Below, in pieces: positions 25,785 to 30,655 of a stretch of DNA of 64,000 nucleotides (its first letter is position 1; every line of letters starts with the position of its first letter). The DNA comes from Patescibacteria group bacterium (GTDB lineage: Bacteria; Patescibacteriota; Minisyncoccia; Moranbacterales; JAKLHP01): the NCBI GenBank assembly GCA_043803385.1, contig JAZDKA010000041.1:19799-83798 (forward strand), given 5' to 3'. The notes under the pieces were generated by a model. That model had not been told where the DNA came from. It worked only from the letters and a program-made list of their open reading frames with translations, and did no database searches. The position numbers were made by a program, and so were the translations under genes.

Positions 25785-26900
25785 ATGCGAATCTCTTATT
25801 CCGCTCTGGAAACTTACAAAACCTGTCCTCTGAAGTACAAATTTCAGGAAATTGACAGGATAAAGACTCCCAAATCCAAGGAGGCAGTTTTTGGTACGAT
25901 TTTGCATTCCACGCTTAATTTTATCCATACTCCGAGCATGCTTTCCCCCACTTTGGAGCAGGCGCTGGATTATTTTTCCCGCAATTGGAATAGTGATGTT
26001 TTTGAGAATGAATTAGAAGAAAGATCAGCATTTTCCCAAGGAGTTTCAATGATTCAGGATTATTACAAAAAAAATGATCCGACAAAAACAAATGTAGTTG
26101 ATTTAGAAAGCAGATTTACAATAGAACTAGGCGACCATATCGTTTCCGGAATTATTGACCGGATCGATAAGACCGAAGATGGCTATGAAATCGTTGACTA
26201 TAAGACGACCAAAAAAATGCCTTCTCAAAATAAGGTTGATAATGATTTGCAATTATCCATTTATCTCCAGGCGTTTCTTAAAAGATATCCTAAGGAAATC
26301 GAAAACATTGATAAAATAAAAGTAAGTTTGTATTATCTCAAGCATGGAGTGAAGCTTACTTCCACTAGAACAGTTGATCAGCTCAAAAAAATCGATGATT
26401 TATTTTTGGATGTTATCAAGCAGATCGAAGAAGGAAAATTTGACGCGCAAATTAATCCCCTTTGCGACTGGTGCGGATACCAGAATGCCTGTCCGATGTG
26501 GAAACACAAGTTCAAGGAAAAGAGAAAAATTGACACGGAAGAGGTGAATAAAATTATTGCCGAGTACATTGCCAGTAAATCCCAAATCACAACTCTCAAA
26601 TCACAACTCTTGAATCTGGAAGATAAAATCTCGGAATATATGGATCAAGAAAGCGTGGAAAGAGTTTTTGGAGAAAACGGAATTATTGCCAGGACATTGC
26701 GAAAAACTTATAAATACGATGAAAAAAAGATTAGGGAAATACTCGAACCACTCGACAAATGGGAAGATGTTTTGAAAGTCGACGGAATCGCGCTCAAAAA
26801 TATATTAGCCGTCTTGCCTTTTAACGCCAAAAAAGAAATTGAAAAAGCGAAAGTGGTGGATAAGGAAAGCAAGAGCTTTAGCGTGAAAAAATCAAGTTAA
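25785..26900 (+). CDS. PD-(D/E)XK nuclease superfamily protein (Cas4/AddB-like, C-terminal 3-4 Cys cluster)
   Basis: N-terminal SYSALETYKTCPLKYKF, ...IDRID...YEIVDYKT (D..E.K motif), and C-terminal CDWCGYQNACPMW. Confidence 0.7.
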   Translation: MRISYSALETYKTCPLKYKFQEIDRIKTPKSKEAVFGTILHSTLNFIHTPSMLSPTLEQALDYFSRNWNSDVFENELEERSAFSQGVSMIQDYYKKNDPTKTNVVDLESRFTIELGDHIVSGIIDRIDKTEDGYEIVDYKTTKKMPSQNKVDNDLQLSIYLQAFLKRYPKEIENIDKIKVSLYYLKHGVKLTSTRTVDQLKKIDDLFLDVIKQIEEGKFDAQINPLCDWCGYQNACPMWKHKFKEKRKIDTEEVNKIIAEYIASKSQITTLKSQLLNLEDKISEYMDQESVERVFGENGIIARTLRKTYKYDEKKIREILEPLDKWEDVLKVDGIALKNILAVLPFNAKKEIEKAKVVDKESKSFSVKKSS

Positions 26901-27528: not shown

Positions 27529-27624
27529 GCATTACCATAATGCTTGAAATTCCGTCACTCGTCTTAAATAAAAGCAAGCTTTTATTTATAAACTCGCTAG
27601 GAATTATAAAAAATCCGGATAGCT

Positions 27625-27652
27625 CTCTCAAGAACTATCCGGTTTATTTCTC
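27625..27652 (+). terminator. Rho-independent terminator
   Basis: ccggatag-ctctctcaagaa-ctatccgg followed by tttatttct. Confidence 0.6.
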
Positions 27653-27669: not shown

Positions 27670-28779
27670 TTAGGTGTTGAATTCCAGGAGTATTTTCTCC
27701 CACCTCTCTGGAAATAAATCGGGACCCGTGCATGAGGTAACTGTATCAGCTCCCATATCGAGGGATTCCGTGACATCATCCTTATCCATTATCCCACCAC
27801 CTTTGATTAGCCAAAGGTTTACTTTTTTTCTCAACCCAGAAAAATAATCGTTACCCAACTTCTTAATTATCTTTCCAGAAACCGCTCCACCTCCGACTTT
27901 TTGCAATGGCGATCTTTGGCTATCTCCATATACAATCGAGAATGGGACAGCATTAATAGCATGAATAGCTTTCACGCCAATAAGCTCCGCTTCCTGGCAA
28001 AAATCATAAGTGTGCAGAAAACCGACTTTTGCTATAATATCCACGCCCTTTCGTTTGGCATTGGGGGCTATTAACCGTAAAAACATCAGAGATTTTTCCA
28101 TGGCCTTGTCTATGTCCTTATTCGTGTCTTCCTGCCTATTCGGGCAATACATAGCCAGTTCTATTTTACTGAATTTTCCCCCCATCGTCAGCTTTAGCTG
28201 ATTGATGACATCGGTGAATTGCAGAACAAGAACGTAAATGTTTTTAGAAAGATCGGGAAAAAAGTTGGGAATAGCCCAAATACCTTTTTTTGAGGATTTT
28301 CCGATTCTTTCGATGCTCTTTTTTGCTCCAGGACCAGTGTGATTATAGGAGTTTAATAATCCCATTTTGTTTCTTGTTCCAAAAAACTTCCAGAATTCAT
28401 ACGGGCTTATTATTTCTCCATTTTTGTGGATTCTCTGGATATACTTCCATGTCCACGGCCACCATATGTGAAAGTTTCCGTTCCATTTCGGGTAAGTAAA
28501 TGACTTTCCCTCAATGGGAGTCCGCGTGTCAATCGCAGTTTTGAGAAGCCCATTATACGAAGATTTCAAAATGCTGGGGAAAATTCCGTCACAATAAATC
28601 CCGAAAAGCGAATTTAAAGATATTTTTGGCATCCAATCCATTTTTTCACCTCTTTGAGTTATTTTTGAAACTTTATTCAATTCTCTTTGGAAACAATAGT
28701 TTCTCACCGTTCCAGGGATTTTTGACGATGCCATTGTTGTAGATAATATCGTCAATCTTTTCCTCCAGTTCATATCCAA
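27670..28779 (-). CDS. Dihydroorotate dehydrogenase family (FMN TIM-barrel) protein, divergent (TTG start)
   Basis: Has a YCPN active-site motif, GGGAVSGK (GGLSG-like), and LIKGGGIMDKDDVTESLDMGADTV (GGI..G.DA...GA). An unusual N-terminal insert (W-rich). Confidence 0.5.
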   Translation of the reverse strand: MDMNWRKRLTILSTTMASSKIPGTVRNYCFQRELNKVSKITQRGEKMDWMPKISLNSLFGIYCDGIFPSILKSSYNGLLKTAIDTRTPIEGKSFTYPKWNGNFHIWWPWTWKYIQRIHKNGEIISPYEFWKFFGTRNKMGLLNSYNHTGPGAKKSIERIGKSSKKGIWAIPNFFPDLSKNIYVLVLQFTDVINQLKLTMGGKFSKIELAMYCPNRQEDTNKDIDKAMEKSLMFLRLIAPNAKRKGVDIIAKVGFLHTYDFCQEAELIGVKAIHAINAVPFSIVYGDSQRSPLQKVGGGAVSGKIIKKLGNDYFSGLRKKVNLWLIKGGGIMDKDDVTESLDMGADTVTSCTGPDLFPERWEKILLEFNT

Positions 28780-28901
28780 CTGTTTTTCTGGAAATATTTA
28801 AGCCGAAGAAATCGGCTACGTTCCATGAGATAAGCTGGCAAACTTGTTCGTCCGAAATTTCAAGCTTTTTGGCAAAGTTAATTGTTAATGAACTGCCTCC
28901 A
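28676..28901 (-). pseudogene. Possible remnant of an amidohydrolase (dihydroorotase-like) C-terminus: ~75 codons, no start, +1 frame relative to the downstream gene
   Basis: Manual translation gives ...GGSSLTINFAKKLEISDEQVCQLISWNVADFFGLNISRKTVGYELEEKIDDIIYNNG..., which resembles the amidohydrolase C-terminal consensus (..ea....T.NPA...GL). There is no ATG and it overlaps the DHOD-like start. Confidence 0.3.
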
Positions 28902-28988
28902 AATTTAACTCATATTACCAATTTACAATAAATAAATCAAGTCAAAGCAAGGCTTTTGACCTTGCTTTTAAGACTGTACTAATATTGA

Positions 28989-29696
28989 TTAAAACCTCAA
29001 ATAATCTCTCCAATATCTATATAATTCTCTCGTCGCTTTGATATCACCAACATTATATTTGGCAATTTCCAGATATTTTTTTTCTTTAAATAACTTTCCA
29101 ACATCATCTCCGGTTATGCCTTCCGCTTTGGGGCTTTTGATCCCAAATGCCCGGCACCAGAGATGCAAATTTCCACGCCTTCGCATGGCGCCGTAAAAGC
29201 TTAATTGATCTAGCAAATCTATATGCTTTGAATCATATTTTTGACTGCCTATATATTTATGGGACATCAAATTCTTTGAAGGCCGAATATTGTGGATAGC
29301 CGAACGAACCATCAAGAACGGCACATCAAATCCCATTCCATTGAAACTTACAAATTCCTGATATTTTTCGCACAGCTTCCAAAATTGCTCCAGCATTTCT
29401 TTTTCTGACATCGGCTTGAGTTTTATTCCCCCTTCATCCGATTCTTCCTTTTTTTCTCCCGGTGATTGATAATAAACTCCGCCTTTGTCTTCCTCGCTGT
29501 CTAAAACTCCAATAGCAACAATTTCACCAGTTAAAGGAGAAAATCCTAATCCATTTTTCAAATCTTCCAGGGCAGTTTCATATTCTTTCTCATTCTGGGT
29601 TTCTCTTTTTATCCAGCGTGTCAAAGAATCCTTCGTTGTGCTATCTAATTTATCGTAATTTTCTCCCACTGTTTCTATATCAAAGATAAGTGCCAT
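28989..29696 (-). CDS. RNase H-fold 3'-5' exonuclease (DnaQ/PolB-exo-like)
   Basis: Exo I motif FDIET near the N-terminus, further acidic motifs (GFDVPFL), and YxxxD near the C-terminus. Confidence 0.65.
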   Translation of the reverse strand: MALIFDIETVGENYDKLDSTTKDSLTRWIKRETQNEKEYETALEDLKNGLGFSPLTGEIVAIGVLDSEEDKGGVYYQSPGEKKEESDEGGIKLKPMSEKEMLEQFWKLCEKYQEFVSFNGMGFDVPFLMVRSAIHNIRPSKNLMSHKYIGSQKYDSKHIDLLDQLSFYGAMRRRGNLHLWCRAFGIKSPKAEGITGDDVGKLFKEKKYLEIAKYNVGDIKATRELYRYWRDYLRF

Positions 29697-29707
29697 ATAG
29701 TTAGTCT

Positions 29708-29790
29708 TTAATTTCAAAATCCAAATGACAAATTTCCAATCAAGCCCAAATGACTAAATGTCAACTATTTGGAAATTGGTAATTTGAAAT
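29708..29790 (-). repeat. Family D palindromic element copy D2
   Basis: Reverse complement of D1 but lacking D1's ~35-nt internal segment. Confidence 0.7.
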
Positions 29791-30488
29791 TATTTAATGA
29801 TCGTTCCTTTAAACTTCTTCCCATCCATATAATTTCCCAGATTCATTAAATCTCGGCCGTTCATAATTGCCACCTCGATATTTTCTTCCTGGGCGATTTT
29901 GGAAGCAATTGGGTCGAAGGGCGCGTTCATCCCGGGATCCCACTTATCCCCCACTATTTTTCGGAAATCTTTCCAGGAAATTTTTTCTATTTTCTTAGCA
30001 TCGGGAAATTTTCGGGGATCCTTAGTGTAAACGTAATCAATATTGGATAGATTAACCACTCGCTTGATATCCATATATTTTGCCAGAATTACCGCGTCGT
30101 AATCAGAAGAAAAGCCCGGTCTCCAGCCAGCTCCAATTAAAATAGATTCTTTGAAGTTATAGAAATCTTCCAGATCGTGAGGATTGGTATTTATTCTTGG
30201 ATGGGCATAATTTCTGAAAATTGTTCTTAGAAAATGTCCATTCATTCTGGTCGCGTGAATTCCCAACCAATCTTTGTCATCATTGGTGACAGAGCTATCG
30301 CCTACCTTGACTGAAGCCTCGATATATTTTCTGGCTGTTTTTCCTCCTCCGGTAATTAAGATAAATTTATAACCTTTTTTGATGTAGCCAACAATTAATT
30401 TCTTGAAGTTTTTTACAAATTGAGCATCGATTTCATCGGGAACGATGAGCGATCCTCCAAGAGAGATTACGATGGTTTTTTTTGCCAT
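29790..30488 (-). CDS. pyrH: UMP kinase (amino-acid kinase family)
   Basis: Start taken at MAKKTIVISLGGSL. Has ITGGGKTARKYI and ILIGAGWRPGFSSDYDA...YTKDPRKFPDAKK. Confidence 0.75.
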   Translation of the reverse strand: MAKKTIVISLGGSLIVPDEIDAQFVKNFKKLIVGYIKKGYKFILITGGGKTARKYIEASVKVGDSSVTNDDKDWLGIHATRMNGHFLRTIFRNYAHPRINTNPHDLEDFYNFKESILIGAGWRPGFSSDYDAVILAKYMDIKRVVNLSNIDYVYTKDPRKFPDAKKIEKISWKDFRKIVGDKWDPGMNAPFDPIASKIAQEENIEVAIMNGRDLMNLGNYMDGKKFKGTIIK

Positions 30489-30655
30489 TTTTGTCTGCGA
30501 GGTACGAGCAGCTACAAAAATGAGCATCCCGCACCAATTCTATTAGTTAACTTTTTATTATTTAAAATTAAGCCGCACTTGCCTAAAGTAAGGCGATTCC
30601 GTGAATAAAACTATAAATTTACTCAAGGATATATTCGGAATTGGTGCGGGAAGGC
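30489..30655 (-). repeat. Family B MITE-like element copy B2, filling the whole HIT-pyrH spacer
   Basis: TIRs gagcatcccgcaccaattc / gaattggtgcgggaag and the core aggcgattccgtgaataaaa. It ends ...cgcagacaaaa-ATG. Confidence 0.8.

Follow-up and report, generated by a model that had tools for sequence, protein, structure and literature searches.

A start-less PyrC-like gene remnant ahead of a dihydroorotate dehydrogenase-like gene in a Patescibacteria contig

What is an open reading frame of 78 codons, with no start codon of its own, doing directly ahead of a gene for a dihydroorotate dehydrogenase (DHOD)-like protein? The question is raised by a stretch of 64,000 nucleotides (nt) of contig JAZDKA010000041.1 (assembly GCA_043803385.1, Patescibacteria group bacterium), which was analysed as a whole and is called the window here; its G+C content is 37.7%. 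The features of interest are all on the minus strand, where a 3'-5' exonuclease gene, the start-less frame, and the DHOD-like open reading frame (ORF) follow one another in that order. Our answer, to which we give a probability of roughly 80%, is that 28909..28679 (minus) is a deletion remnant of a PyrC-like (dihydroorotase-like) gene, no longer translated, and now part of the leader or promoter region of the DHOD-like gene.

A fragment of a PyrC-like gene

Three features define the fragment:
28679..28909, minus: 78 sense codons left from the 3' end (about 20%) of a PyrC-like gene, translation VKFGGSSLTINFAKKLEISDEQVCQLISWNVADFFGLNISRKTVGYELEEKIDDIIYNNGIVKNPWNGEKLLFPKRIE
28676..28678, minus: TAA that closes the remnant frame and was already the stop of the PyrC-like gene
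28911..28913, minus: ATG one base off the remnant frame, reading ATG AGT TAA (28913-28905), then A TTT GGA GGC

An earlier note on this DNA had described a start-less stretch of about 75 codons at 28676-28901, which was right to within 8 nt. A TGA at 28912-28910 stands directly 5' of the frame, and a search of the frame for ATG, GTG, or TTG found none ahead of about codon 72. Length alone says little about such a stretch, because the window has 167 open stretches this long or longer, and 68 of these fall in the range 78-99 codons. Codon usage gives the frame 0.27-0.29 bits per codon, a gene-like value (real genes, 0.32+/-0.12) that puts it fifth among 211 non-gene open stretches of 60-110 codons.

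The 78-amino acid (aa) peptide, taken alone, gave no amidohydrolase match in a Pfam scan, no match in a sequence search of the PDB, and no candidate in a word-indexed search of 5.8 billion proteins; its best NCBIfam match, the dihydroorotase model PRK02382, was not significant (E 0.22). An exhaustive phmmer scan of 1.84 billion representative proteins returned 19 matches. The best, P0015, is 71% identical (E 9e-24) and pairs residues 11-76 of the query with 285-350 of its 354; the others are C-termini of proteins of 354-386 aa, or short fragments, apart from the match to P0016 (1163 aa, 12 stretches), a translation of tandem repeats that we set aside as spurious. In the reverse direction, tblastn places residues 281-350 of P0015 on 28891..28682 (67% identity, E 4e-27), and DNA identity between the window and L019, the locus of P0015, is 74% over 28878..28689. 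A chance ORF is excluded by this homology. The remnant corresponds to about residues 275-350 of P0015, its closest homologue, and keeps 9 of 9 family-conserved C-terminal positions (the N of SWN, a D, and those of YNNG.V.NPW); about seven residues of the conserved motif GG(L/I)PSNQEMV are absent at its 5' edge. When family members were compared by tblastn with the 64-kilobase (kb) window in every frame, no second PyrC-like fragment was found.

To what kind of protein did the fragment belong? The full-length relatives, about 354-371 aa long, keep HxHGR, MPNT, the Lys of G.K.YP, two His, and SD.A.H (the D..H element). Their profile, searched against the PDB, places dihydroorotases at the top (3gri, 2e-29; the dihydroorotase domain of CAD, about 1e-26; Escherichia coli 1j79, 4e-21), with allantoinase (2e-22) and hydantoinase (9e-17) ranking among the weaker dihydroorotase matches, and their top NCBIfam models are all dihydroorotase. 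TIGR00857, the broadest PyrC model, gives the intact relatives 84-134 bits, short of its cutoff of 279, so that the curated NCBIfam cutoffs do not place them in PyrC, and Pfam Amidohydro_1 (cutoff 25) reports P0017 at 31.2 bits, with the other nine homologues below the cutoff or without a match. An AlphaFold 2 (AF2) model of P0015, with a predicted local distance difference test (pLDDT) score of 87.4, resembles the Methanocaldococcus jannaschii dihydroorotase and allantoinases at template modelling (TM) scores of 0.78-0.85; in this model the segment matching the remnant is two barrel helices and a beta-hairpin.

Judged by their profiles and predicted fold, the full-length relatives are a divergent, uncurated dihydroorotase-like family, and their motifs and adjacency to DHOD genes, canonical PyrK-PyrD included, suggest that the intact members have dihydroorotase activity. 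The earlier note had recognized a PyrC-type C-terminal remnant beside the DHOD-like gene, and both the phmmer match and the dihydroorotase-like profile and fold of the relatives uphold this. The check it had proposed, an amidohydrolase match for the translation, gave a split result: negative in the direct Pfam and NCBIfam scans, positive once the exhaustive scan and the family profile were used.

The course of events would then have been as follows. A PyrC-like gene would have stood in close, co-directional linkage with the DHOD-like gene downstream, an arrangement that related Patescibacteria still have. One or more deletions would have taken its first 275 or so codons, including the start codon, and with them the HxHxR and PN motifs, the Lys, the two His, and the Asp..His. 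The metal-binding and substrate residues of dihydroorotases all lie N-terminal of the surviving 78 codons, so none is in the remnant, and because every catalytic element is lost the remnant cannot be a hydrolase. The relic would now be only 5' leader or promoter region; the DHOD-like gene is translated from its own GAGGTG-ATG site at 28641. As one would ask of a pseudogene, the remnant has lost its own coding capacity, and relatives carry an intact homologue at the corresponding syntenic position.

Some observations weigh against this reading. The remnant is undegraded: no stop interrupts its 78 codons, its codon usage is gene-like, and all nine conserved positions are in place. It is 73% identical to its counterpart in L019, as alike as intact orthologues are among themselves. 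This state is compatible either with a recent deletion or with continued selection on the piece; the ratio of nonsynonymous to synonymous substitution rates (dN/dS) of the remnant against L019 is not computable, dS being saturated. There is also the ATG one base off frame at the 5' edge. Removal of one T near 28905-28913 would yield an 80-codon ORF, MSKFGG..., from ATG 28913, so a real ORF of that length could be masked by an assembly indel; this ATG may be a relic of the original start, the mark of such an indel, or chance.

Assembly error could also have a larger part, if the contig were chimeric or collapsed between 28909 and 28943, or carried indels, and a full-length pyrC-like gene were really present. 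Two features upstream of the remnant bear on this:
28989..29717, minus: 3'-5' exonuclease gene (Pfam DNA_pol_B_exo2, 79 bits)
28944..28968, minus: terminator-like hairpin of the exonuclease gene, upstream of the remnant, a stem of 10 base pairs (bp), then a T-rich tail

The source is a metagenome-assembled genome (MAG) and the remnant looks undecayed, but the junction holds the normal terminator of the upstream gene and ordinary intergenic sequence, and comparable truncations occur in four independently assembled genomes. Nor can a frameshift restore a single long gene, an outcome for which the earlier note had allowed: no pyrC-like sequence lies upstream in any frame, and the next gene is only 80 nt away, terminator included. 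We regard an artefact of this kind as highly improbable. The hairpin marks how far upstream the deleted part of the gene can once have reached.

The gene pair in related Patescibacteria

Relatives were located by scanning GTDB species representatives with a family motif, which gave 15 loci, labelled mostly as Moranbacteria, Falkowbacteria, Parcubacteria, or Patescibacteria (three are other or unassigned). A PyrC-like gene lies directly upstream of, and co-directional with, the DHOD-like gene at ten of them (L003-L008, L010, L011, L014, and L017) and also at L019, so that the comparison with intact pairs proposed in the earlier note bears out the pairing. The spacing from PyrC-like stop to DHOD-like start, taken at L019, L003, L006, and L017, runs from an 8-nt overlap to 14 nt.

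At two further loci (L009:5983-8856 and L016:5983-9017), the neighbour of the PyrC-like gene is a canonical PyrK-PyrD fusion of 577-629 aa in convergent orientation, with DHO_dh at 169-196 bits, a DHODB Fe-S match, and, in L009, a match to an NAD-binding domain. The presence of this fusion beside the PyrC-like gene supports a real functional link between dihydroorotase and DHOD. L009 is otherwise syntenic with L004 (RecQ ... FolD-DUF559-SHMT), which has a divergent 313-aa DHOD-like gene where L009 has the fusion; this looks like the replacement, in place, of one DHOD type by another. No PyrK adjoins the divergent DHOD-like gene in the window or at the relatives' loci, and pyrB, pyrE, and pyrF were not found in the 6-kb flanks on either side of the cassette in relatives. 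A search of the literature for this gene pair in Patescibacteria (candidate phyla radiation) returned nothing specific.

Several relatives show the PyrC-like gene at other stages of loss, with truncations of independent origin in L014, L017, and L018. In L014 (5920-7616), it is cut N-terminally to 245 aa, without the HxH region, and stands beside the DHOD-like gene. L017 (5962-6297), compared with the syntenic L006 (5980-7074), lacks 762 nt through a clean in-frame deletion, which fuses ...IIDSHCH to TTQEK..., that is, the HxH motif to the region past the Asp..His, and leaves a 111-aa mini-ORF with its own Shine-Dalgarno (SD) site and ATG. L018 retains a PyrC-like remnant of 121 open codons. 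The order is reversed at this locus (L018:4951-6318), where the degenerate remnant follows a distant DHOD-like gene (330 aa, 27% identity to the family); part of that remnant matches P0032, a protein of 74 aa. At L001, at L002, and on the contig of P0003, the DHOD-like gene stands alone, with RNase HII or YceG upstream and no remnant, which rules out the proposition that a DHOD-like gene always has a PyrC-like neighbour. The 78-codon stub of the window is one more stage of this series.

It should be remembered that both searches for loci used the C-terminal peptide or motif, and remnants that keep other parts of the gene are undetectable by them. The apparent rule that truncations always keep the C-terminus is therefore discounted as a sign of function.

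Might the C-terminal piece still be made, as a protein of about 70-80 aa, from a non-canonical start or, given a 1-nt assembly error, from ATG 28913, and be kept, as the most conserved module of the PyrC-like family, for a role of its own, such as binding or stabilizing the DHOD-like enzyme or coupling translation? The 78 open codons, the gene-like codon usage, the intact conserved residues, and the nearby ATG would suit this, as would the mini-ORF of L017, whose C-terminal part has a dN/dS of 0.13-0.19, like that of neighbouring genes, and the truncated forms of L014 and L018, which also retain the C-terminal end. The given sequence, however, offers the remnant no ATG, GTG, or TTG start, the lost residues of the GG(L/I)PSNQEMV motif count against it, and two barrel helices with a beta-hairpin are unlikely to fold alone. 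The retention of C-termini is biased by the C-terminal queries, dS is almost saturated between L006 and L017, and the L017 deletion may be simply recent. We think a small protein of this sort unlikely. In a more general form, the C-terminal module of about 75 residues would work alone, with the truncations in the window, L014, L017, and L018 all keeping it in frame upstream of the DHOD-like gene; this is a doubtful proposition of much the same standing. If it were true, the DHOD-like enzyme would depend on the mini-protein, or on its translation, for its assembly, stability, or translational coupling, and would itself have taken on a role independent of dihydroorotase. An untranslated deletion remnant remains the reading we prefer.

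The start and state of the DHOD-like gene

Where the DHOD-like gene begins decides whether the remnant overlaps it. The following features are involved:
27670..28779, minus: DHOD-like ORF in its longest call, TTG start, 369 aa, with the motifs YCPN, GGGAVSGK, and GGGIMDKDD
27670..28641, minus: true extent of the DHOD-like gene, 323 aa from ATG 28641 (MDWMPKISL...) to the stop at 27672-27670
28647..28652, minus: SD sequence GAGGTG, 5 nt ahead of ATG 28641, in the context AAAGAGGTGAAAAA, then ATG
28642..28779, minus: spurious N-terminal extension of the DHOD-like ORF, an out-of-frame reading of the PyrC-like 3' end
28912..28940, minus: putative sigma-70-type promoter of the DHOD-like gene, TTGATT, 17-nt spacer with TGn, TAATAT

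The TTG-initiated ORF and its three motifs are present as the earlier note described them, and the ORF is identical to the NCBI protein V1804_03805 ("hypothetical protein", 367 aa, on an 87-kb contig of a Patescibacteria group MAG), which starts at ATG 28773. One could thus take the whole region for an N-terminal extension of a DHOD-like protein of 367-369 aa, and the other open frame for its chance shadow. The extension frame is indeed open from 28797, TTG 28779 and ATG 28773 are possible starts, and the 367-aa protein is the annotated one, but 13 of 13 homologues (29-38% identity, about 305 aa) align from about residue 47 of the 369-aa ORF, beginning some 46 residues later, and the extension is missing from all of them. 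Its codon score is 0.015, in the non-coding range (the 323-aa gene has a normal 0.23), while the other frame has homologues at E 9e-24. At L019, where the PyrC-like gene is intact, the out-of-frame peptide TTMESSKIPGTAKNYC, the counterpart of the window extension STTMASSKIPGTVRNYC, lies inside that gene, upstream of the DHOD-like start. An SD site stands ahead of ATG 28641 and at none of the rival starts (TTG 28779, ATG 28773, and ATG 28734). A genuine extension is accordingly the least credible of the alternatives, and we reject it.

Because the N-termini of homologues, the codon scores, the SD site, and the out-of-frame peptide of L019 all agree, the true start is ATG 28641, and the NCBI model appears over-extended by 44 codons (28642-28773). 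This ATG lies 34 nt past the stop of the remnant; the earlier note had the remnant ending inside the next gene, an overlap that came from the over-long ORF call. In the window, an SD-like 4-mer is found at -20..-4 in 11 of 50 long ATG-started ORFs, some of which may have mis-set starts. SD use therefore seems low in the source genome, and the strong GAGGTG before the DHOD-like start stands out.

The putative promoter matches 8 of 12 consensus positions, which is below the threshold of the promoter scan, and hence went unreported by it; from its sequence and position it may possibly serve the DHOD-like gene, with transcription predicted to begin near 28905. An Rfam scan of 28500-29100 gave nothing near any gathering score, and no riboswitch or leader RNA family.

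Has the DHOD-like gene itself decayed, as the earlier note supposed in speaking of a decayed pyrC-pyrD pair? Pfam DHO_dh is passed narrowly (31 bits, gathering threshold 27, E 1.9e-7), and the NCBIfam PyrD equivalog gives the window protein 30.6 bits and its relatives 60-77, below the cutoffs of 269-270. Its AF2 model has a pLDDT of 83.5 and a predicted TM score (pTM) of 0.86, and the top 50 Foldseek matches of the model are DHODs or the flavin mononucleotide (FMN) domain of dihydropyrimidine dehydrogenase (TM about 0.6-0.65), with the Lactococcus lactis DHODB PyrD best. The residues K46, N97, C166, N168, K205, and N230 do not vary within the family, and the window protein has them all; by a mapping to DHODA/DHODB they are the equivalents of Lys43, Asn67, Cys130 (the catalytic base), Asn132, Lys164, and Asn193 in DHODA numbering. 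The FMN-phosphate motifs GGxSG and GGI are present as well, so that the check for FMN-binding residues, which the earlier note had suggested, finds them retained along with the Lys/Asn set. Sequence and model together indicate that the gene is intact and would encode an FMN-type TIM-barrel enzyme.

The protein has diverged nonetheless. In DHODA, Met69-Gly70-Leu71 form the orotate-binding loop, and the role of Asn127 is described likewise (PMC12060061). The loop equivalents in the window protein are Y99-N100-H101, the family consensus being Y-G-L, and the residue matching Asn127 is Ala163, at a site that is conserved in most of the family but not throughout. Of the 43 positions with 90% conservation or more in the rest of the family, the window protein departs from the consensus at 12, more than any other member does, and the changes include G100N and L101H in the orotate loop and S165Y beside the catalytic Cys. 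Second is the DHOD-like protein of L014, whose PyrC-like partner is truncated (10 of 42 positions); that of L017, with its apparently recent PyrC-like deletion, deviates at only 2. This hints that loss of the partner is followed by relaxed or changed constraint on the DHOD-like protein. Part of the deviation in the window protein is common to L019.

The window protein carries two insertions, one of which is lineage specific:
28369..28419, minus: insertion of about 17 aa in the DHOD-like protein, residues ~75-91, GEIISPYEFWKFFGTRN, a gap in all homologues

Residues 79-92 of this region have a pLDDT below 50. The "odd W-rich N-terminal insert" of the earlier note combined this real insertion with part of a conserved family motif, GNF...P.TWKYIQ, which is no insert. 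With the ORF intact, the codon score normal, and the deviation partly found in L019, decay of the DHOD-like gene is not established; of the supposed decayed pair, the pyrC half stands and the pyrD half does not. The divergence of both proteins, taken earlier for decay specific to this genome, is shared by the Patescibacteria gene pair as a whole.

Setting, meaning, and comparison with known systems

The remaining features of the neighbourhood are these:
27615..27642, minus: terminator-like hairpin 3' of the DHOD-like gene, 12-bp stem with 6 GC pairs, T-run
29790..30527: pyrH-type (UMP-kinase-type) kinase gene, AA_kinase, 110 bits
32146..33780: pyrG, CTP synthase, 354.8 bits

The earlier note's remark that the genome keeps pyrG and pyrH agrees with the last two. 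Also nearby are a PD-(D/E)XK/Cas4-like nuclease at 25785-26900 and the PolB-exonuclease-like DNA_pol_B_exo2 gene at 28989-29717, neither of them tied to pyrimidine metabolism.

What does the locus mean more widely? Taken as gene loss in a reduced, host-dependent bacterium, it is ordinary reductive evolution, and its novelty is modest. The practical outcome is a correction of the gene model: the DHOD-like protein has 323 aa, not 367. The recovered MAGs of Moranbacteria, Falkowbacteria, and Parcubacteria contain a divergent dihydroorotase-like/DHOD-like cassette whose scores do not come near the curated PyrC and PyrD cutoffs, and those who reconstruct de novo pyrimidine synthesis for Patescibacteria from standard models could miss its genes. 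The cassette is seen with its PyrC-like gene intact, N-terminally truncated, internally deleted, reduced to a 78-codon stub, and absent next to the DHOD-like gene, and so offers a small natural series in which to follow the loss of one pathway step beside a neighbour that stays.

How, finally, do the two families compare with known systems? What the remnant's full-length relatives have in common with the dihydroorotases of Staphylococcus aureus (3gri), M. jannaschii (7uof), human CAD, and E. coli (1j79) is a TIM-barrel fold (TM 0.74-0.85) and the elements HxHxR, PN, Lys, His, His, and Asp..His, and they have a DHOD gene as neighbour. They differ in being without the N-terminal adjacent-domain strands of long dihydroorotases and in bearing a family-specific C-terminal tail, Y.LE..D..YNNG.V.NPW.G..L.FP; the window keeps only this tail and the last two helices, with zero catalytic residues. 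Allantoinase and dihydropyrimidinase (hydantoinase) belong to the same superfamily and have the same fold, and allantoinases are among the top structural matches of P0015, whereas in profile scores they fall below the dihydroorotases. The pairing with DHOD genes points to dihydroorotate, rather than allantoin or dihydrouracil, as the probable substrate of the PyrC-like family.

The DHOD-like protein shares its barrel fold, catalytic Cys, and Lys/Asn set with class 1 DHODs (L. lactis DHODB, 1ep3; DHODA, 1dor), and differs from them by its Y-N-H orotate loop, its Ala for Asn127, its two insertions, and the want of an adjacent PyrK. The truncated pseudogenes of reduced and symbiotic genomes are the closest parallel for the remnant itself, being likewise start-less, core-less fragments in compact genomes, with relatives that show other stages. 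What sets the window fragment apart from these is that it is unusually clean and lies just where it could serve the surviving partner gene as a leader.

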